The notes: generated by a model not told the origin, from the sequence alone. Counted from the stretch's first letter, positions 1 through 7,057 are shown. The stretch: DNA of 7,057 bases from a virus (IMGVR_UViG_2645728091_000009), one strand, 5' to 3'. Program-made: numbers and translations.

Positions 1-55
1 GGAGGAAGGAAACTACCGGATGGAAAGAGTCCCCCTAAAGCAGACTGACAGACAT

Positions 56-93
56 CACAAATCCCCGGGTGGGGATTTGTGTATAAGAGACAG
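56..93. repeat. Perfect 11-bp inverted repeat (56-66 CACAAATCCCC / 71-81 GGGGATTTGTG, loop GGGT) whose right arm runs into a 19-mer (75-93) resembling a Tn5/IS50 transposon end
   Basis: Read directly: the arms are exact reverse complements. Reverse complement of 75-93 is CTGTCTCTTATACACAAAT; the first 16 nt are identical to the Tn5 mosaic end CTGTCTCTTATACACATCT as I recall it (17/19 overall). No transposase ORF in the window. Confidence 0.5.
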
Positions 94-181
94 CCGCACA
101 GGGGGATTCACCATGCCAGTTTCTTTTAACAAACTCCCCGCAAACCAGACAACAGTCAACCGCCTGAATTGTGAGACATTT

Positions 182-207
182 AAAAAAAAGGCCCGCAAAA
201 GCGAGCC
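182..207 (-). terminator. Rho-independent terminator candidate downstream of the tRNA cluster
   Basis: Minus-strand RNA GGCUCGC-UUUU-GCGGGCC (7-bp stem with one G.U) followed by eight U (plus-strand A run 182-189). Confidence 0.55.
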
Positions 208-221
208 AGGGAAAATAAGTG

Positions 222-298
222 TGGCGCGTTGTACTGGATTCGAACCAGTGACCGATTGCTTAGAAGGCAATTGCTCTGTCCGGCTGAGCTAACAACGC
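222..298 (-). tRNA. argO: tRNA-Arg, anticodon UCU (argO-like, third gene of an ileZ-argN-argO type phage cluster)
   Basis: Manual cloverleaf on minus strand: acceptor GCGTTGT/ACAACGC, D stem GCTC/GAGC, anticodon stem ATTGC/GCAAT with loop CTTCTAA, T stem ACTGG/CCAGT with loop TTCGAAT, discriminator G, encoded CCA. Symbol assigned by anticodon and gene order from memory of Stx-type phages, not by search. Confidence 0.8.
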
Positions 299-311
299 AT
301 GATGCAGATAA

Positions 312-388
312 TGGACCGCCATCGGGGACTTGAACCCCGCGCAGCCAGCTTCGAAGGCTGGCGCTCTATCCCGATGAGCTAATGGCGG
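312..388 (-). tRNA. argN: tRNA-Arg, anticodon UCG (argN-like)
   Basis: Manual cloverleaf: acceptor CCGCCAT/ATGGCGG (C1-G72), D stem GCTC/GAGC, anticodon stem CCAGC/GCTGG with loop CTTCGAA, T stem CGGGG/CCCCG with loop TTCAAGT, encoded CCA. Symbol by analogy only. Confidence 0.75.
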
Positions 389-395
389 TATGTGA

Positions 396-471
396 TGGTG
401 GCCCTTGCTGGATTTGAACCAGCGACCTGGCGATTATGAGTCGCTCGCTCTCACCACTGAGCTAAAGGGCC
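396..471 (-). tRNA. ileZ: tRNA with anticodon CAU (Met or lysidine-modified Ile2; ileZ-like)
   Basis: Manual cloverleaf: acceptor GGCCCTT/AAGGGCC, D stem GCTC/GAGC, anticodon loop CTCATAA, T stem GCTGG/CCAGC with loop TTCAAAT, discriminator A, encoded CCA. Met versus Ile2 identity cannot be decided from sequence alone. Confidence 0.8.
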
Positions 472-511
472 GGGAGCCGCATAATAACGACGCGTAATTA
501 ATTCTTCAATA

Positions 512-1570
512 TCATCCGTTCTGGCTGACTAAATCCTGTACTTCCCGAACCGTCTGCTCAAAACGTTCAGTCTCCAGCTCAACGCCAATTGCACGACGCC
601 CGAGCGCCAGTGCCGCTTTCACTGTCGAACCCGACCCCATGAAAAAATCTGCAATCAGGTCACCCGGACGACTGCTAGCGCTGATTATCTGCTGCAGCAT
701 TTCTGCCGGTTTTTCGCACGGATGTTTCCCGGGATAGAACTGCACCGGTTTATGCGTCCACACATCGGTATACGGCACCTGCACCGTCACGCCAAAATAC
801 CGCCGCAGATGCTTATATTCACTCAGCAGTTCCATATACTGCCGGTTCAGCTCACTGTATGTGCTGACCAGTTGGTAATGGGACTTTTCCAGTTCTCCCC
901 GCTGATGTTTCTCTTCTGCCACCCGGGCAAACAGCGACTGTAATTTCAGATAATCGCTTTCGTTCGGTAGCTGCCACTGACTGGCACTGAACCAGTGCGA
1001 CACCATGTTTTTCTTTCCTGTGGCATCTGCAATCTGTTTTGCCGTTATCCCAAGAGCAGCACGCGCATCACGAAAGTAAGAAATCAGCGGGGCCATCACA
1101 TGCTGTTTCAGTGCCCTGCCCTTCGCCTCATCGCCATCATCTTTCGGACGATACGGCCCCTGATAATGTTCCGCGAACAGAATGCGTTCTGTGGCCGGAA
1201 AATACGCCCGCAGGCTTTCCTTGTTGCACCCGTTCCAGCGTCCGGACGGCTTCGCCCAGATAATATGGTTCAGCACATTGAAGCGTTCACGCATCATGAT
1301 TTCAATGTCAGATGCCAGGCGATGGCCACAGAACAGGTAAAGACTTCCGGCAGGTTTCAGCACCCGCCAGAACTGCGCCAGACACTGGTCCAGCCACTTC
1401 AGGTAATCATCGTCGCCCTTCCACTGGTTATCCCAGCCCTCGGGCTTCACTTTAAAGTATGGCGGGTCTGTGACTATCAGATCGACAGAGTTTTCCGGTA
1501 AGGTCTGGATAAATTCCAGGCAATCAGCGTTGATTAACTCACAACTGGATATTTTTACAGTATTAGCCAT
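512..1570 (-). CDS. DNA methyltransferase, beta-class amino-MTase (N6-adenine or N4-cytosine), probable phage orphan methylase
   Basis: 352-aa ORF. DPPY motif (motif IV) at residues 35-38 (IVTDPPYF) and AdoMet-binding FxGxG motif near the C-terminus (DFFMGSGST, about residue 300). Motif order IV then I defines the beta class. No adjacent restriction endonuclease gene. Confidence 0.8.
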   Translation of the reverse strand: MANTVKISSCELINADCLEFIQTLPENSVDLIVTDPPYFKVKPEGWDNQWKGDDDYLKWLDQCLAQFWRVLKPAGSLYLFCGHRLASDIEIMMRERFNVLNHIIWAKPSGRWNGCNKESLRAYFPATERILFAEHYQGPYRPKDDGDEAKGRALKQHVMAPLISYFRDARAALGITAKQIADATGKKNMVSHWFSASQWQLPNESDYLKLQSLFARVAEEKHQRGELEKSHYQLVSTYSELNRQYMELLSEYKHLRRYFGVTVQVPYTDVWTHKPVQFYPGKHPCEKPAEMLQQIISASSRPGDLIADFFMGSGSTVKAALALGRRAIGVELETERFEQTVREVQDLVSQNG

Positions 1571-1710
1571 AGATCAATAAGCACTTCTCTGATAGGCTCA
1601 TACCGCTTTTGCGCAAAGCAGATGGGCCTGAGGTTTGCTTGTGACCCCAACGCATGAGCAGATGGCTGGCAGGTGCCGCTAACACCCACCAGCCGCCCAT
1701 TACCACAAAT

Positions 1711-1734
1711 AAAAAAGCCTTCACTGAGGAAGGC
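1711..1734 (-). terminator. Rho-independent terminator candidate overlapping the stop of the 106-aa ORF
   Basis: Minus-strand RNA GCCUUC-CUCAGU-GAAGGC (6-bp stem) followed by UUUUUU (plus A run 1711-1716). Confidence 0.5.
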
Positions 1735-2041
1735 GTCTGTAACAACCGAACTGATAATCTGCCAGACCCGCCATAACAAGCTGGGTCAGTATTAACTGGC
1801 AGCGTTCGCGTGAAAGATAAGTGTTCTGCGCAATTTCCCCGGCGGTCGCCGGTTCGGTGACGCTTAATTCATTAAACACCACTCTGGCGGTTTCGGTCAT
1901 ATCCTGCTGTTTTAGCATGCCTTTTTCCATTTTCCGGTTAACGTGACATACCAATAACTCTTGTCGAAAAAGCCAGCAAGTTGAAAGACCGGTATTAGCA
2001 ACCACCAGCGCGTTTAACGCCCCGTGCCGTTTTTCAGTCAT
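1721..2041 (-). CDS. Hypothetical small protein; C-terminal half looks like a helix-turn-helix/winged-helix DNA-binding fold
   Basis: 106-aa ORF. The annotated ATG directly abuts the U-tract of the upstream terminator with no Shine-Dalgarno; internal Met codons (residues 38, 42, 48) are possible true starts. Segment ATAGEIAQNTYLSRERCQLILTQL resembles an HTH. Weak call. Confidence 0.3.
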   Translation of the reverse strand: MTEKRHGALNALVVANTGLSTCWLFRQELLVCHVNRKMEKGMLKQQDMTETARVVFNELSVTEPATAGEIAQNTYLSRERCQLILTQLVMAGLADYQFGCYRRLPQ

Positions 2042-2063
2042 AAAAAAACCCGCAAAAAGCGGG
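2042..2063 (-). terminator. Rho-independent terminator immediately downstream of the Q-like gene (tR'-like position)
   Basis: Minus-strand RNA CCCGC-UUUUU-GCGGG followed by seven U (plus A run 2042-2048). Position matches lambda tR' (established lambdoid layout). Confidence 0.6.
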
Positions 2064-2142
2064 CTCTTTCAAATGTCTATGTCTGCTATTCGCCTCGCGG
2101 TACAGCTTTGCGAAGCTTACCGGAATTGAAGCAGTTTTTACG

Positions 2143-2709
2143 TCAAAAAGCAATAACTTTTTTCTCTATACCAAAAGCCATAACCATTGGTTTGTACAAA
2201 ATAAATTCTGCCACCTTTAGCCAATGCTCAATGCGTCTTTCACAGGTTCTTAAACTCCATTCCGGATGTGCATCATTCAGCAGTTCAGCCATTTTGCGCT
2301 TAGTCATCCCCCGCCCCACATAACGCTGACTCAGAACATTGAGCAGCCCGGAATAACCTGCCAGTACTTCACCAATAACCCTGTCGATTATTAACGCCTC
2401 TGAATCGGTACAATGTGCCAGCCAGCTTTTTTGATTGCCGTTGATCATATCCCGCAAAAAAGCCTCAAGTTCAGGTTTGTCCAGACCCGCTTTTTTCATC
2501 CTCCGGAGCGCCTCGTTAATTGCCGTTTTTGTCAGCTTTTTAGAGGTCAGTAATTGGTTGAACATATTTCCCGTCTTACCGTCGCCAATATACGACCAAC
2601 GCCCCCACATACGCAGTTTCCCCTGGATCCAGACACTTTCCAGCGTTTTCAGGCGTAAATGCTCACCGCTTTTGCCTGTAATTTCCGGGTATATCATATT
2701 TATGCTCAC
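2143..2709 (-). CDS. Late-gene antitermination protein Q candidate (phage 82 / QuuD-like family)
   Basis: 188-aa ORF whose start overlaps the rusA stop (ATGA). Sits in the canonical rusA -> Q position. Motif RMWGRWSYIG...QLLTSKK resembles the WGxW...LITSK region of QuuD-type Q proteins as I recall them. Not confirmed by search. Confidence 0.55.
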   Translation of the reverse strand: MSINMIYPEITGKSGEHLRLKTLESVWIQGKLRMWGRWSYIGDGKTGNMFNQLLTSKKLTKTAINEALRRMKKAGLDKPELEAFLRDMINGNQKSWLAHCTDSEALIIDRVIGEVLAGYSGLLNVLSQRYVGRGMTKRKMAELLNDAHPEWSLRTCERRIEHWLKVAEFILYKPMVMAFGIEKKVIAF

Positions 2710-3071
2710 TCACTTTCAATTTTGTAAATCTTCACGCCCAGCCGCCCACCAGAAACGAGCTGACCGCGCACAATATTGATTTCATCAAACTGCTCGTCGT
2801 CTATAAGTAGTCCGGCATGCGTAAGCGCATCCAGTGGTGCCTTCAGGATATTGTCCAGGTCGCGGCGGCGCTTATCCGGTGGCTCTGCAATAATCTTTAT
2901 CGCCAGCCTTCCGGACAGGTTTAATTTCAGCCGCTGCTGGCGAACAATAAGTGCCACATCCCGGCGATAACGCTCACCGGCTTTTGACACAAAATATGTG
3001 CTGCCACGACGTCGCCAGTAGGTGTTCACCGTCGGCGGGTAAGGCAAAACAAATTCTATGCGTTCAGTCAT
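2706..3071 (-). CDS. rusA: Crossover junction endodeoxyribonuclease RusA (Holliday junction resolvase)
   Basis: 121-aa ORF with the RusA hallmarks: N-terminal PYPPTVNTYWRRRG, DKRRRDLDN catalytic acidic cluster, LDALTHAGLLIDDEQ; size matches 120-aa RusA. Confidence 0.9.
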   Translation of the reverse strand: MTERIEFVLPYPPTVNTYWRRRGSTYFVSKAGERYRRDVALIVRQQRLKLNLSGRLAIKIIAEPPDKRRRDLDNILKAPLDALTHAGLLIDDEQFDEINIVRGQLVSGGRLGVKIYKIESE

Positions 3072-4127
3072 TCATGCTTTCCACTTCAGGACACCCGAAT
3101 TTCTCGCGTGCATTAAAAAACGAATCAGCAACAACAGCTGGCTGCCGTGTTTTTCTTCAAAATCTTTTACCCCGGCGTGCAGTTCGTTATGACATTTACG
3201 GCACAGCGGAATAACAAACAAATCATCAGCCTTTGTTCCCATCCCTCCCAGTCCATGACCAATGATGTGATGCGGATCATCTGCCTGATTACCGCACGTC
3301 ATGCATTTCTGCGTTTTTACCCAGCGCGTGTATACAGGCATCTCTTCCCGTTGTGGTTTCTGGCGCTGGAGATACTGAGCCGGTGACTCCGGATCAACGG
3401 CAATGCTGACCACCGTCTTTTCCTGTGGCGGGTTTTGCTGGTGGGCGTGAGGCAGCAGCGCAAGATTTTTTGTGCGCTGCTTCAGTATGCTGGTGGCGGT
3501 CTGCTCTCCCGGTACGATGTCGCTTTCGCGGTACACCGAGCGGATTTTTTCCGCACGCAATCCCAGAGAACGACGTAATACTGCCTCCGGCAATACGTCC
3601 GCTACCTGATTGCAGACCGCCCACCAGGATAATTCAGCCAGCGATAACTCCCGCTCCTGTGTACCGTTTATTGCGTGGCGGATGACGTCAATCATCCAGG
3701 ATGTCAGGTTTTGTTGAGCAAGTTGCCCGAGTGATTCTGAAGTCTGGTCGCGTAACTGATTATCACAGTGCCAGCACAATACCATCGCGCCGGTACCGTA
3801 ACGATGTATGACGGTTTCACTGTGGTGGTAGTCACCATGAGGCCACTGGCAGGATTTAACATGGCGTAACAGCCAGTCAGACAATGCGCCAGCGCCGCCA
3901 GCAGCACGAGTCACCCGCTCATCGCTGAAAAATGGCAGTAATGATTTATCTTCCGCGAGCGGCTGGCGCACGGCAGGAACAGCTCCTGACGGCAGACCGC
4001 GCATGCTTTTCGGTTCCGGCTCCACCAGCACCCGGGGATTATGAAATACCTGTATGGATTCACGGCCCGGCTTAAGGACCACCAGCCCGAGTTCCGGTAC
4101 CAGAACAGGTCGAAGTAATACCCGCAC
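3072..4127 (-). CDS. YdfU-like (DUF968) prophage protein with a C-terminal YbcO/DUF1364-like Cys/His zinc-binding, putative nuclease domain
   Basis: 351-aa ORF, translationally coupled to both neighbours. C-terminal CMTCGNQADDPHHIIGHGLGGMGTKADDLFVIPLCRKCHNELH follows the C..C...H...G..GTK..DL...C..CH.E pattern I recall for YbcO-type proteins. Size matches Qin YdfU (349 aa). Confidence 0.75.
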   Translation of the reverse strand: MRVLLRPVLVPELGLVVLKPGRESIQVFHNPRVLVEPEPKSMRGLPSGAVPAVRQPLAEDKSLLPFFSDERVTRAAGGAGALSDWLLRHVKSCQWPHGDYHHSETVIHRYGTGAMVLCWHCDNQLRDQTSESLGQLAQQNLTSWMIDVIRHAINGTQERELSLAELSWWAVCNQVADVLPEAVLRRSLGLRAEKIRSVYRESDIVPGEQTATSILKQRTKNLALLPHAHQQNPPQEKTVVSIAVDPESPAQYLQRQKPQREEMPVYTRWVKTQKCMTCGNQADDPHHIIGHGLGGMGTKADDLFVIPLCRKCHNELHAGVKDFEEKHGSQLLLLIRFLMHARNSGVLKWKA

Positions 4128-4128
4128 G

Positions 4129-4407
4129 TTACCTCCAGATACGCTGCTGGAATGTGCGGGACGGAAGCGGTGGGCGTTCAGAGTAAGGCAGTCTGACTGA
4201 GATTATCCAGTGTCGGAAGTCGAAGCTGAGGTCTTTCTGAAACTCGTAACCACGTCCGCGGTAGTTCTGAATTAGCCACTCTGCCTGCTCTTCAGTACAT
4301 GGATCATGCTGGAACCAGTCAGATTTGAATGCATGAGAACGCCGCCCGTGCCTGCTGGCAAAGACGGCTGAATTATCAGAATTGTGTTGTCTGGAATTTT
4401 GCGCCAT
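4129..4407 (-). CDS. Hypothetical protein (92 aa), first gene of the ydfU-rusA-Q operon
   Basis: Good RBS (GGAGAAAG about 7 nt upstream of the ATG at 4407); stop 1 nt before the start of the downstream 351-aa gene. No recognisable motif. Confidence 0.55.
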   Translation of the reverse strand: MAQNSRQHNSDNSAVFASRHGRRSHAFKSDWFQHDPCTEEQAEWLIQNYRGRGYEFQKDLSFDFRHWIISVRLPYSERPPLPSRTFQQRIWR

Positions 4408-4473
4408 CGGCTTTCTCCGGTGGCACAGTGTTACTCAACAGGGGTTCAGCCCTGCGCTGAATTGTAGATGAAT

Positions 4474-4782
4474 TCACTCATCTTCAAAAGCAGAAAAACC
4501 AGCCTTAATCCCAGCTTCTTTCAGAGACGGCAACGATGTGACAAATTCATTTGCACGCAAAATAAAACCATCCGTCACAAGCCCATCCACCAAATGAATT
4601 AACGCAGCTCCACTCTTCCTTTGTTGAGACTGTAAACATTTAATACGGCAGTGGCTGACAATAGCGCCATTCTCAACGCGCACAGTATAGAGGCCATCCT
4701 CACTAAAAATTTCACGTAATTCTTCGATTTTCATCAACAGAATCCTTCCAGATAAATAGCACTCCCCCTGTTCGGGGTCCAT
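4474..4782 (-). CDS. Hypothetical small protein (102 aa from the ATG at 4782, or 86 aa from the internal ATG at 4734)
   Basis: Both candidate starts have purine-rich RBS (GGGAGAAGAGGG before 4782; GGAAGGA 8 nt before 4734). Lies in the AT-rich island just downstream of the cassette terminator. No recognisable domain. Confidence 0.5.
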   Translation of the reverse strand: MDPEQGECYLSGRILLMKIEELREIFSEDGLYTVRVENGAIVSHCRIKCLQSQQRKSGAALIHLVDGLVTDGFILRANEFVTSLPSLKEAGIKAGFSAFEDE

Positions 4783-4817
4783 CCCTCTTCTCCCTGCGCG
4801 CTACTTAAGTATTTTTG

Positions 4818-4847
4818 ATTCTATTCTGGCACCGTCCAAAACTTCAA
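4818..4847 (-). promoter_or_regulatory. Candidate sigma70 promoter for the 4474-4782 ORF
   Basis: On minus strand: -35 TTGAAG (plus 4842-4847), 18-nt spacer, -10 TAGAAT (plus 4818-4823). Hexamer matching only. Confidence 0.3.
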
Positions 4848-4867
4848 ACACGTTGAAAATAAAAACA

Positions 4868-4887
4868 AAAAACCCGCCGAAGCGGGT
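4868..4887 (-). terminator. Rho-independent terminator after the HTH-peptidase gene; left copy of a 20-bp direct repeat
   Basis: Minus-strand RNA ACCCGC-UUCG-GCGGGU followed by UUUUUUGUUUUU. The 20-mer AAAAACCCGCCGAAGCGGGT (plus strand) is identical to 6703-6722. Confidence 0.7.
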
Positions 4888-4891
4888 ATAC

Positions 4892-5998
4892 TCAAACAAT
4901 CTGGAAAATATTTCTTGGATTTGTAATAGGTCTGTTGATGGAGAACAACTCACGAATTAAATCTTGGCTCAAGCCAGTTTTCATAAGAATTCTTAGCCAA
5001 GTTGCATCATCCAGCATTTCAATCGCCTCGGCCAGCATGCCGGGTTCTTCAGGGCGCAAAAGTTCATCACCAGGTTCAACTCTCGTATACCCTCTGGAAT
5101 TAAGATGCATATAGCCAGTTCTTGCCTGTTCCTGGGTCAATAAGCCTAATGCGCTGGCTCGATAAATACACATTTTAAGGCTGATTTTCCATCTAAGTTT
5201 AAATTCAACCAGAGCATTCCAGTCGAATTGCTTACCTCGTATTCGTGGAAATTCTTTAATGAAAGATAACCTGGGAACTAATAAGGCGCTCGAAAAGTGA
5301 TCGGCTTGTGATTCCGTAAGTTTATCACCTGTCGTTATGCCCTCATGCATTACTAAATGCCCTAATTCATGACCTAAATCAGAGCGAAATCTACATATGC
5401 TTTTTTTAACATTGTTCCTGATGATAACAGGCCTGTTATTGTGAACAGTAAAAGCATCAACACGATCATCGACTCCCGTAACATGCGCAACGATTACCCC
5501 TAAACTCTCCGCCAATTTAACCATTGATGATATAGGGCCAAGACCTAAATTCCAGGCACGGCGACAATCTTCTGCCACTCGCTCAATATCATTCGGAGTA
5601 AGTAATTCAGCCCCTGGGTGCTCCGGTATGTTAACGTCAGGAAATTCGATTTCACCTTCAACAGCAGAAATTATAATATTAAGAATCTCAGCCCTGGCCA
5701 ATACACTATTAGTCAGCGTTTGAGTCCTGGACTTCTTACTCCGAAAATGGCAGACATCACTTTCCAGAGCGTATTTTCGTTCAGTAAAAAGAAAACTGGA
5801 CTTAATCATAAGCGCTGAAGATATTAACTCAAGACATTGCTCCGATGGCCTGCACCCCTTCTCCAGTTTGCTAACGAATTGCTTTGTCTTGCCAATTTTT
5901 TCGGCTAACTCTTCACAAGAAAGCCCAACAGCCATTCTCGCTAGTTTGAGCTTATCACCCCGATACTCAGTGAAGTTATTCACCTGATGTTCCATCAC
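4892..5998 (-). CDS. XRE-family HTH fused to an ImmA/IrrE-type (COG2856, Peptidase_M78) Zn-metallopeptidase; candidate antitoxin/regulator of a two-gene module
   Basis: 368-aa ORF. N-terminal HTH (LKLARMAVGLSCEELAEKIGKTKQFVSKLEKGCRPS). HExxH at residues 210-214 (HELGH) with downstream ESQADHFSSALLVP matching the E...A..FA..LL.P third-ligand region of ImmA/IrrE peptidases. About 120 aa of C-terminal extension without recognisable motif. Start (GTG 5998 or ATG 5995) overlaps the upstream gene. Confidence 0.88.
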   Translation of the reverse strand: MMEHQVNNFTEYRGDKLKLARMAVGLSCEELAEKIGKTKQFVSKLEKGCRPSEQCLELISSALMIKSSFLFTERKYALESDVCHFRSKKSRTQTLTNSVLARAEILNIIISAVEGEIEFPDVNIPEHPGAELLTPNDIERVAEDCRRAWNLGLGPISSMVKLAESLGVIVAHVTGVDDRVDAFTVHNNRPVIIRNNVKKSICRFRSDLGHELGHLVMHEGITTGDKLTESQADHFSSALLVPRLSFIKEFPRIRGKQFDWNALVEFKLRWKISLKMCIYRASALGLLTQEQARTGYMHLNSRGYTRVEPGDELLRPEEPGMLAEAIEMLDDATWLRILMKTGLSQDLIRELFSINRPITNPRNIFQIV

Positions 5999-6626
5999 TG
6001 CTCACATCCAAATCTTTATCCTTCGTACGCCGACGAAGAGGCACCTTATTAATCTCCGCTTCGTCAGGGAGTGTGTTATAATCAAGAGACATAAGCGGCA
6101 TCGATGCTGTAGATTGATGAGAAACTATACTAATCTGAGCACCATAAGTATTAAATCCAACAAGAGCTACCTCCCAACGAGGCAGTGTGGACTCTAATTC
6201 ACCATCGCCCTCTTCGGATAAAAAAGGCTCAGCTATGACTCGCCATGTAATATCTTGCTCAGCCTCAACATCACCAAACAATGAGAGCTGCTCATACTCT
6301 ACTTTATTTCGACGCAGACGATGTTTCTTTTTGGGGTTATTAATGCAATCTTTGGTAAATTGTAGCGGAACTTTATTTAAAGCAACTACATAGTCCAACC
6401 CCTTGGAAATCATCTCAAGGCCAGGAATTGCATCTTCATTTTGAATAAGATGATTTCTGACCCAATCATAAGCCCTTACACCTTCAGACCAGTTGCTGTC
6501 TAATGCGTGCTTATGATAGTACAGCTGCTCAAGTACGTTAGCGATCTCCGCCAACAAGTGGCGAACATAGTTTTCAGCAAGATAAGGTTGAAATTCCCAA
6601 CAAGGAGCTAACTGATTTTCATTCAT
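5976..6626 (-). CDS. Hypothetical 216-aa protein with no recognisable domain, co-operonic with the HTH-peptidase; candidate toxin/effector partner
   Basis: Long ORF in an AT-rich segment whose 3' end overlaps the downstream gene start by 23 nt. Acidic C-terminal half and a basic patch (NPKKKHRLRRNK). No TM segment or catalytic motif I can identify. Weak RBS. Confidence 0.7.
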   Translation of the reverse strand: MNENQLAPCWEFQPYLAENYVRHLLAEIANVLEQLYYHKHALDSNWSEGVRAYDWVRNHLIQNEDAIPGLEMISKGLDYVVALNKVPLQFTKDCINNPKKKHRLRRNKVEYEQLSLFGDVEAEQDITWRVIAEPFLSEEGDGELESTLPRWEVALVGFNTYGAQISIVSHQSTASMPLMSLDYNTLPDEAEINKVPLRRRTKDKDLDVSSDGTSGE

Positions 6627-6661
6627 TTCAAGTTTCGCTTTTTTTAGAATTCGTAAACCAC

Positions 6662-6690
6662 ATATTTTCGCATTTTTCTATTTTTGTCAA
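6662..6690 (-). promoter_or_regulatory. Candidate sigma70 promoter of the two-gene cassette
   Basis: On minus strand: perfect -35 TTGACA (plus 6685-6690) followed 15-17 nt later by an A/T-rich -10 region (TGcGAAAAT / AAATAT), about 40 nt upstream of the 216-aa start. Confidence 0.4.
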
Positions 6691-6702
6691 CCAGACTAAT
6701 GC

Positions 6703-6722
6703 AAAAACCCGCCGAAGCGGGT
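6703..6722 (-). terminator. Rho-independent terminator downstream of hok; right copy of the 20-bp direct repeat
   Basis: Minus-strand RNA CCCGC-UUCG-GCGGG followed by UUUUU. Identical 20-mer to 4868-4887. Confidence 0.5.
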
Positions 6723-6791
6723 TAAGTGCGGGTGCGTTGAGGATGCCTGGCACATCAGAGGTGGCGGGAGATTACTCCCCCGCCGGGTCTC

Positions 6792-6947
6792 TTACTCCTC
6801 AGGTTCGTAAGCTGTGAAGACAGCGACCTCCGTCTGGCCGGTTCGGATTCGTACCTCGCAGAGGTCTTTCCTCGTTACCAGTGCCGTCACTATGACGGTT
6901 AAACAGATGACGATCAGGGCGATTAACATCGCCTTTTGCTGCTTCAT
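6792..6947 (-). CDS. hokD: Hok/Gef-family type I toxin (small membrane-damaging peptide), HokD/RelF-like
   Basis: 51-aa product from the internal ATG at 6947: MKQQKAMLIALIVICLTVIVTALVTRKDLCEVRIRTGQTEVAVFTAYEPEE. It has the Hok signature (hydrophobic helix, TRK.LCE, conserved C-terminal region) and matches HokD as I recall it. RBS AGGAGA 9 nt upstream. The in-frame 64-aa extension in the ORF track is probably not used. Paralog assignment (hokD versus hokC-like) unverified. Confidence 0.8.
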   Translation of the reverse strand: MKQQKAMLIALIVICLTVIVTALVTRKDLCEVRIRTGQTEVAVFTAYEPEE

Positions 6948-7057
6948 AGCCTGCTTCTCCTGTGTAAGTTCACAGAGATATTGCAATTGCCTCCGGATAA
7001 GTAAGGGGAGATTGCACTATGCAAATGCAGCATCTGATGGTTGGCTATCCTAAGTAC

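Follow-up and report, generated by a model that had tools for sequence, protein, structure and literature searches.

The stretch of viral DNA analysed here (7,057 nt; hereafter, the window) contains exactly three tRNA genes, all of which were called by ARAGORN on the minus strand. In the order of transcription, these are an ileZ-type tRNA-Ile2 gene with the anticodon CAU (positions 396–471), an argN-type tRNA-Arg gene with the anticodon UCG, which reads CGA and CGG (312–388), and an argO-type tRNA-Arg gene with the anticodon UCU, which reads AGA and AGG (222–298). The genes lie head-to-tail in the late direction, are separated by 7 nt (389–395, between ileZ and argN) and 13 nt (299–311, between argN and argO), and each encodes its own CCA end. 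A first-pass annotation had described the same trio at 222–471, with these anticodons and spacers, from the sequence alone and had proposed ARAGORN as a check; both ARAGORN and Rfam agreed with it. When compared to the Rfam tRNA model (RF00005; gathering score, 29), the genes scored 72.5 bits (ileZ), 58.4 bits (argN) and 70.1 bits (argO), with E-values from 7e-15 to 5e-11, thereby indicating that the calls are not chance matches. In a cloverleaf check, argN and argO showed no broken stem pairs and lacked none of the universally conserved nucleotides, and ileZ contained a single non-standard pair, A27.C43. The discriminators are A73 in ileZ, U73 in argN and G73 in argO. The C1–G72 acceptor pair and the U discriminator that had been pointed out as unusual in the middle tRNA were both present, the U73 immediately preceding CCA; nevertheless, the minimum free energy (MFE) fold of argN alone was a clean cloverleaf (−35.0 kcal/mol). 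The annotation had also considered that the three genes might score as pseudogenes. Their Rfam scores of 58–72 bits speak against this, as does the 100%-identical module of Escherichia coli FDAARGOS_1059, in which NCBI labels the genes tRNA-Ile, tRNA-Arg and tRNA-Arg and flags none as a pseudogene. Two ORFs that span the insertion sequence (IS) end described below and the tRNA genes (20–292, plus strand; 55–270, minus strand) were treated as spurious. The Rfam matches to Plastid-ycf2 (on the plus strand of ileZ), STnc100 (1–145) and isrK (2043–2116) were all under the respective gathering scores.

ARAGORN labelled the CAU tRNA as Met, its usual mis-call for such a tRNA, and some phage records do likewise. 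An elongator Met was ruled out, as the gene is identical to K-12 ileX at 68 of 76 positions but to K-12 metT at only 54 of 77; its identity to ileZ of phage 933W is complete (76/76). The anticodon loop, CUCAUAA, is the same in ileZ and K-12 ileX, and the differences between the two genes are partly compensatory (U6–A67 in ileZ versus C6–G67 in ileX). K-12 ileX carries G27.U43 at the position of the A27.C43 pair of ileZ. By these likenesses, the CAU gene is a tRNA-Ile2 (ileX-like) gene and not a Met gene. It carries C4–G69 and C5–G68, which are determinants for TilS, and its CAU anticodon is expected to be converted by this enzyme to lysidine-AU, and hence to read AUA.

The argO gene is identical to 933W argO at 76 of 77 positions, the sole difference being A37 in the window and G37 in 933W, and to K-12 argU at 56 of 77; it shares with this host gene the anticodon loop CUUCUAA, A20 and G73. 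The argN gene is identical to its 933W counterpart at 74 of 77 positions, and C1–G72 and U73 are common to both copies. Among the K-12 tRNA-Arg genes compared, which included argU and argQ/X/W, there was no UCG isoacceptor, and all of them differed from the C1–G72 and U73 of argN. The identity elements for arginyl-tRNA synthetase (ArgRS) are A20 in the D-loop, C35, and G36 or U36. Both phage genes carry them: argN has A20, the D-loop AUCGGGAUA, and C35 and G36 in its UCG anticodon, and argO has A20, the D-loop AGCCGGACA and a UCU anticodon. A purine discriminator (A73 or G73), which was present in all of the K-12 Arg tRNAs compared, is found in argO (G73) but not in argN (U73). According to identity studies on E. 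coli ArgRS, a pyrimidine discriminator should reduce the efficiency of charging. U73, together with C1–G72, thus lowers our confidence that argN would be charged efficiently, although its sequence still marks it as an Arg-type tRNA gene.

The three genes are bracketed by signals of their own. A σ70 promoter-like site lies at 481–509 on the minus strand and consists of a −35 hexamer TTGAAG (504–509), a 17-nt spacer, a −10 hexamer TATTAT (481–486) and a GC-rich discriminator, which would place a putative promoter some 10 nt before the first tRNA gene. This was the single promoter-like match found by a promoter scan in positions 1–2300 of the window, a count that has no statistical significance in itself (one site versus 2.0 ± 1.9 in shuffled sequences). 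The site is conserved in position: TATTAT and a TTG-type −35, with unchanged spacing, precede ileZ in 35 distinct upstream contexts (118 viral loci) in which the flanks diverge, and it aligns with “pT”, the putative tRNA promoter annotated in 933W. Downstream of argO, a terminator scan detected an intrinsic terminator at 182–207 on the minus strand (stem GGCTCGC/GCGGGCC, loop TTTT, followed by T8). The hairpin was also seen in the MFE fold of the full predicted transcript, and the 933W feature to which it aligns is annotated [quoted passage not shown]. Having both a promoter-like site and a terminator of its own, the trio has the form of a self-contained tRNA operon within the late region.

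This cassette is already known, its annotation in Stx phages dating back to the genome record of 933W. The cassette annotation used here is that of the GenBank entry of the 933W reference record (NC_000924). The order in that record is pT, ileZ, argN, argO, rho-independent terminator and stxA2. Gene order, strand, anticodons, −10 hexamer and terminator hairpin are all shared with the window, the −35 is nearly identical (TTGAAG in the window, TTGCAG in 933W), and 307 of 330 positions are identical from promoter to terminator. The first spacer is 7 nt in the window and 9 nt in 933W. Comparison to the late region of 933W, which had been suggested beforehand, thus bore out the assignment of the trio to the ileZ–argN–argO cluster of Stx-converting and related lambdoid phages. 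The surroundings differ. In 933W, the cassette directly follows Q, pR′ and tR′, and stxA2 starts 90 nt after it; in the window, a 65-aa ORF and a DNA methyltransferase gene lie between the cassette and a DUF1133-type Q, there is no stx, and the end of an ISEc13 element is found 128 nt downstream.

Directly upstream of the tRNA promoter-like site is a gene for an N6/N4 DNA methyltransferase of 352 aa (512–1570, minus strand; Pfam PF01555, 151 bits; PHROG 67 and 6025). To examine the neighbourhood of the cassette, we surveyed 120 viral loci from IMG/VR that carry an identical ileZ, and in 55 of them the first feature recognised on the upstream side was such a methyltransferase, making it the commonest upstream neighbour. 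It is preceded by the 65-aa phage ORF (1721–1918, minus strand; PHROG 331, 126.9 bits), which is annotated as a hypothetical protein in relatives. At the end of this ORF, the terminator scan detected a terminator-like hairpin followed by a T-run (1717–1734, minus strand), a candidate for a late-operon terminator between Q and the methyltransferase gene. The Q-like late antiterminator itself (2143–2709, minus strand) is of the DUF1133/QuuQ type: it matched Pfam DUF1133 with 348.5 bits, PHROG 753 (“anti-termination protein Q-like”) with 271 bits, and Phage_antitermQ with 31.9 bits (cut-off, 26). A tblastn search of the window with 933W Q gave no meaningful match, so the Q of the window does not belong to the 933W Q family. 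Beyond Q, a RusA gene and then a gene for a DUF968/HNH protein follow on the same strand. The trio had been described as lying downstream of Q. This holds with respect to strand and late direction, but the cassette does not follow Q directly, as 1.67 kb and two ORFs intervene, nor is this Q of the 933W type.

The same description likened the locus to the region upstream of stx in Stx-converting phages. The cassette does match that of 933W, but its closest relatives carry a NanS-p esterase and lysis genes and not stx. When 933W StxA2 and StxB2 were used as tblastn queries, only chance matches were obtained in the window (E-values of at least 0.26), in keeping with the earlier remark that no Stx A-subunit start is encoded in the 221 nt that follow the last tRNA. 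The best genome matches, with 99.8% identity over positions 94–6961, were non-Stx prophages. The best of these is the lambdoid (Qin/DicB-type) prophage of FDAARGOS_1059 / O111:H2 strain 12A, which shares with the window the order hokD, a 216-aa ORF, an HTH-M78 protein, DUF968, RusA, Q-like, small ORF, methyltransferase and three tRNAs. After the tRNAs, it continues with a pseudogene fragment, a SASA/NanS-p esterase, holin, lysozyme, Rz and terminase, without stx; neither ISEc13 downstream of the tRNAs nor an IS481-family element beside hokD is present in it. Matches to Stx2 phages (about 94%) end near position 184, at the terminator, whereas the homology to non-Stx prophages reaches the IS junction. 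Among the 120 viral loci, the first recognisable downstream gene was a NanS-p esterase gene in 30, iraM in 28, a holin gene in 11 and stxA in only 8. Stx is therefore a minority cargo of the cassette, and the trio marks lambdoid late regions in general rather than stx. Its presence is no evidence for a nearby stx operon, since most copies are found in non-Stx prophages before esterase, iraM or lysis genes. As a whole, these data make it very probable that positions 182–509 of the minus strand represent a self-contained phage tRNA operon, the ileZ–argN–argO cassette, in a lambdoid E. coli prophage of the non-Stx, Qin/DicB type.

The window stops 221 nt past the last tRNA, as noted in the first-pass annotation, and this stretch consists of the terminator, 88 nt of prophage DNA (94–181, minus strand; 100% identical to FDAARGOS_1059 down to position 94) and the terminal 93 nt of ISEc13, an IS50-like element of the IS4 family (1–93, minus strand). 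The latter segment has an OE-type end, CTGTCTCTTATACACAAAT, and a subterminal hairpin. All of its 93 nt equal the end of an annotated ISEc13 copy in E. coli E2348/69 (the copy next to mog), it occurs as a multi-copy repeat at up to 32 places per genome, and the breakpoint relative to the uninterrupted relative falls exactly at 93/94. The insertion point of ISEc13 is 128 nt past the last tRNA, and the element is oriented with late transcription. The complete E2348/69 copy ends in CTGTCTCTTGATCAGATCT and CTGTCTCTTATACACAAAT and is accompanied by an 8-bp duplication at the apex of a terminator hairpin. The terminal 19 nt of the element in the window match the IS50 outside end at 17 of 19 positions, and CTGTCTCTTGATCAGATCT, the second end of the complete copy, is the IS50 inside-end sequence. 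An apparent preference of ISEc13 for hairpin targets of the CCGCNCNGGGGGATT type is a mildly new observation. A Nextera adapter artefact at positions 75–93 was considered and ruled out, because all 93 nt correspond to the ISEc13 end, which is multi-copy in many genomes; the motif CTGTCTCTTATACACA at 78–93 is accordingly the genuine end of the element and not adapter contamination.

It had been predicted that the left edge would be followed closely by late cargo, either toxin genes or the lysis cassette. For the sequence that comes immediately next, this is wrong, given the ISEc13 end at 1–93: the first gene beyond the edge should be a transposase gene rather than a toxin or lysis gene, with a start that, by analogy with a complete copy of the element, should lie about 73 nt outside the window and point with late transcription. 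On the far side of ISEc13, the organisation of the uninterrupted relative leads us to expect an 8–9-bp duplication of CTGTGCGG, followed by AGGGGCAATCAG, the NanS-p esterase gene and the lysis cassette. The leftward extension of the contig that had been suggested found no counterpart of the junction. The IS/prophage junction gave no exact match in species-representative genomes (49-nt pattern) or in viral and metagenome contigs (35-nt pattern), and none of the complete E. coli genomes searched has ISEc13 at the prophage site 93/94.

Many prophages integrate in tRNA genes, such as argU and argW of K-12, and the window stops soon after the trio, so the tRNAs could in principle be host genes at a prophage border, indicating its site of integration, a possibility already raised in the first-pass annotation. 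We give this explanation next to no probability. In uninterrupted relatives, the cassette lies amid phage genes, with Q and the methyltransferase before it and the esterase, lysis genes and terminase after it, and the 93/94 break coincides with an IS end and not with an att site; these two findings rule out a host tRNA or att-site boundary. In addition, no integrase gene is adjacent to the cassette, and the tRNAs share only 56–68 of about 77 nt with host genes.

The cassette is widespread in E. coli. The 328-nt module (match covering at least 80%) was found in 2,290 of 5,426 complete E. coli genomes (about 42%), at up to 13 places per genome, and positions 1–520 of the window were matched over at least 80% in 506 complete E. 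coli genomes, a match that requires most of the tRNA module together with 94–181. Of the 120 viral loci, 116 had enough downstream sequence for typing. Following ileZ, the tRNA content was CAU-UCG-UCU in 59 loci, CAU-UCU in 29 and CAU-Lys-Thr-Gly in 15, the remaining loci having other combinations. The argN gene was fully canonical in 37 of the 116 loci, compared to 76 of the 116 for argO, which was identical to the window copy in 38 loci. ARAGORN called 59 copies of argN, and these comprised 31 sequence variants. Pseudogene copies of argN were found in at least 29 viral loci and, clearly so, in E2348/69, where the copy has AA instead of the acceptor GG and lacks the T-loop. A scrambled tRNA-like sequence of about 80 nt takes the position of argN in no fewer than 24 loci; it retains the acceptor, D and T stems and CCA, but a hairpin with a 3-nt loop stands where the anticodon arm would be. 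In other relatives, the middle slot is filled by Lys, Thr and Gly tRNAs. The nucleotide at −1 of argN is an A that could pair with U73. Across the family, therefore, ileZ and argO are conserved and argN is the unstable member of the cassette, although the window copy of argN is intact; that the middle slot is unstable is a mildly new point.

The prophage segment at 94–6961 lies between two different IS elements, ISEc13 (1–93) and an IS481-family element (6962–7057), which is likewise a mildly new observation. The flanking by these two elements suggests that the prophage is decaying, and the cassette may have ceased to be of use for phage growth. One might go further and regard the cassette, or at least argN, as a non-functional relic that hitch-hikes in an IS-bracketed prophage and is of no use to phage or host; the argN pseudogenes in E2348/69 and the viral loci, the U73 of argN, and the lack of enrichment of its cognate codon, CGA (see below), would all fit such a view. 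However, all three genes in the window are intact and score highly, the promoter-like site and the terminator are preserved, and prophages with different flanking genes share an identical ileZ and a nearly identical argO. Such conservation despite differing flanks (argO being canonical in 76 of 116 loci) argues for purifying selection. We consider the relic explanation very improbable for the locus as it stands: for ileZ and argO a pure relic is unlikely, and for argN in many lineages it is plausible. Because argN is degenerate in so many relatives, a third or more of the cassette may be of little effect.

Codon usage points to a role for the two conserved genes. Relative to a host baseline of only 15 K-12 genes (4,919 codons), the 10 ORFs of the window are enriched 6.5-fold in ATA, AGA and AGG taken together (p = 2e-16), and for CGA the odds ratio is 1.8 (p = 0.11). 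In the late genes of the closest relative, the corresponding values are 4.4-fold and 0.96-fold, and in stx2AB of 933W they are 12-fold and 1.3-fold (p = 0.66); stxA2 alone contains 15 ATA codons. The proposal that the trio supplies tRNAs for rare codons thus stands for ATA and AGA/AGG, which are enriched 4–12-fold, but not for CGA, the codon of the UCG tRNA, which is not enriched and whose tRNA gene has decayed in many relatives. These results support codon supplementation by ileZ and argO, but not clearly by argN. The instability of argN and the conservation of ileZ and argO fit this codon demand, as the prophage genes are rich in ATA, AGA and AGG but show no enrichment of CGA.

On this basis, we infer the following course of expression for the cassette. 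The σ70 promoter would give rise to one short transcript containing tRNA-Ile2(CAU), tRNA-Arg(UCG) and tRNA-Arg(UCU) and stopping at the strong intrinsic terminator, and Q-modified polymerase from an upstream late promoter would probably read through the cassette as well. Host RNase P and 3′ exonucleases could then free the three tRNAs, the CCA ends of which are already encoded. Host TilS would form lysidine at C34 of the ileZ product, so as to permit AUA reading, and host ArgRS would charge both Arg tRNAs. The extra tRNAs may in this way increase the supply for AUA and AGA/AGG, codons that are rare in the host sample, 4–12-fold enriched in prophage genes and higher still in stx2A. The UCG tRNA would add direct decoding of CGA and CGG, a contribution that appears to be dispensable and to be eroding across the family.

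A different benefit has been proposed for other phage tRNAs, namely as spares that replace host tRNAs destroyed by anticodon nucleases such as colicin D, or by further defence systems that target tRNAs, rather than as a match to codon usage. Besides the study cited next, further recent work reportedly points to an anti-defence role for other phage tRNAs. Replacement of nuclease-cut host tRNAs has been described as such a role, with tRNA-Arg isoacceptors named as the target of colicin D and a mutation in the anticodon loop as the signature of anti-defence tRNAs (PMC10264068). Two of the three tRNAs of the cassette are Arg tRNAs, and thus of a known colicin D target class (PMC10264068), the acceptor features of argN are atypical, and the middle slot is hypervariable, both in its argN copies and in its occupation by Lys, Thr and Gly tRNAs. 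Yet ileZ and host ileX have one and the same anticodon loop (CUCAUAA), as do argO and host argU (CUUCUAA), which is the opposite of the loop-mutation signature in PMC10264068 and leaves an anti-defence role unsupported here. The codon-usage signal for ATA, AGA and AGG is strong, and the variation of argN, with broken stem pairs and lost T-loop nucleotides, looks like decay and not like a directed change of the anticodon loop. We therefore regard anti-defence as an improbable explanation of the cassette and favour codon supplementation by ileZ and argO.

The middle slot may also be considered separately. The atypical acceptor end of argN (C1–G72, U73 and the A at −1), its dozens of variants, its replacement by the tRNA-like sequence of about 80 nt and the Lys, Thr and Gly tRNAs of other relatives raise the question of whether more than simple decay is at work. 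It is conceivable, but in our estimation highly improbable, that this slot is fast-evolving and under selection, and that its products act not in CGA decoding but as decoys for, or substrates of, a tRNA-targeting nuclease, a CCA-adding or repair enzyme, or a synthetase. If so, the middle slot would harbour a new kind of phage tRNA-like effector within a textbook cassette.

The middle slot of the tRNA cassette, occupied in the window by argN (312–388, minus strand), was compared with positions 4170–4266 of the comparison sequence L010 and with IMG/VR loci among the 120 surveyed that carry an identical ileZ (L011–L130). In at least 24 related loci, the argN position is occupied by a tRNA-like sequence of approximately 80 nt, which retains the acceptor, D and T stems as well as the CCA end, and in which a hairpin with a 3-nt loop replaces the anticodon arm and the T-loop is non-canonical; 13 copies of this sequence are identical. 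In the E. coli E2348/69 prophage, the middle slot contains an argN pseudogene with point mutations rather than the tRNA-like sequence. In 15 of the IMG/VR loci, an identical ileZ is followed by a different set of tRNAs, Lys(UUU), Thr(UGU) and Gly(UCC), which replace both argN and argO. Since identical ileZ is paired with other tRNAs in these 15 loci, the cassette is modular, with ileZ as its constant member. The argO gene in the window has A at position 37 (window 258), whereas argO of the Stx2 phage 933W has G37, a variant present in 3 of the 59 surveyed trio loci. In tRNAs that read ANN codons, A37 is the carrier of the t6A modification.

Directly downstream of the Q-like gene, the Rfam model of IsrK, a prophage sRNA, gives a weak, sub-threshold match on the minus strand (2043–2116; 20.6 bits, E = 0.41), and a terminator-like hairpin lies about 300 nt beyond it on the same strand (1717–1734). 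Together, the IsrK-like match and the hairpin could represent the late promoter, short leader transcript and tR' for the type of Q in the window.

An overlapping gene pair on the minus strand (4892–6626) consists of a 216-aa ORF, assigned to PHROG 5786 (function unknown), followed by a 368-aa protein with HTH and M78 (ImmA/IrrE) domains, which is similar to repressor/antitoxin proteins of the spr1629 family (155.9 bits with the NCBIfam model, under the cut-off of 335). The closest non-Stx prophage, that of E. coli FDAARGOS_1059, carries this pair, whereas the E2348/69 prophage, otherwise similar to the window, has rem in its place. These two genes may form a moron, or a cassette of toxin-antitoxin-like or defence type.

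A HokD/RelF-type Hok toxin gene (6792–6986, minus strand; Pfam HOK_GEF, 81.7 bits), of a type also found in the Qin prophage of K-12, adjoins the start of an IS481-family element at the right edge (6962–7057; transposase ATG at 7019, plus strand). This junction is common to E2348/69 and about 55 other genomes. Because the IS481-family element occupies 6962–7057, the 6.9-kb prophage segment (94–6961) is located between two different IS elements.

At the left edge, the flank beyond the OE-type end of ISEc13 (1–93) is CCGCACAGGGGGATT, and that of the E2348/69 mog–satP copy is CCGCTCGGGGGGATT. A terminator hairpin carries the latter copy in its apex, where 8 bp are duplicated (CCGCTCGG). Matches to window 1–130 extend at least 11 nt beyond the ISEc13 end in 586 genomes, and 12–15 nt among the matches listed. 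ISEc13 appears to favour one particular target (window flank 94–108; positions 30–52 and 1585–1607 of the comparison sequence L002). The ISEc13 end at 75–93, CTGTCTCTTATACACAAAT, matches the Nextera/Tn5 mosaic end at 17 of 19 positions and could pass for adapter in trimmers or contamination screens; it is genuine IS sequence.
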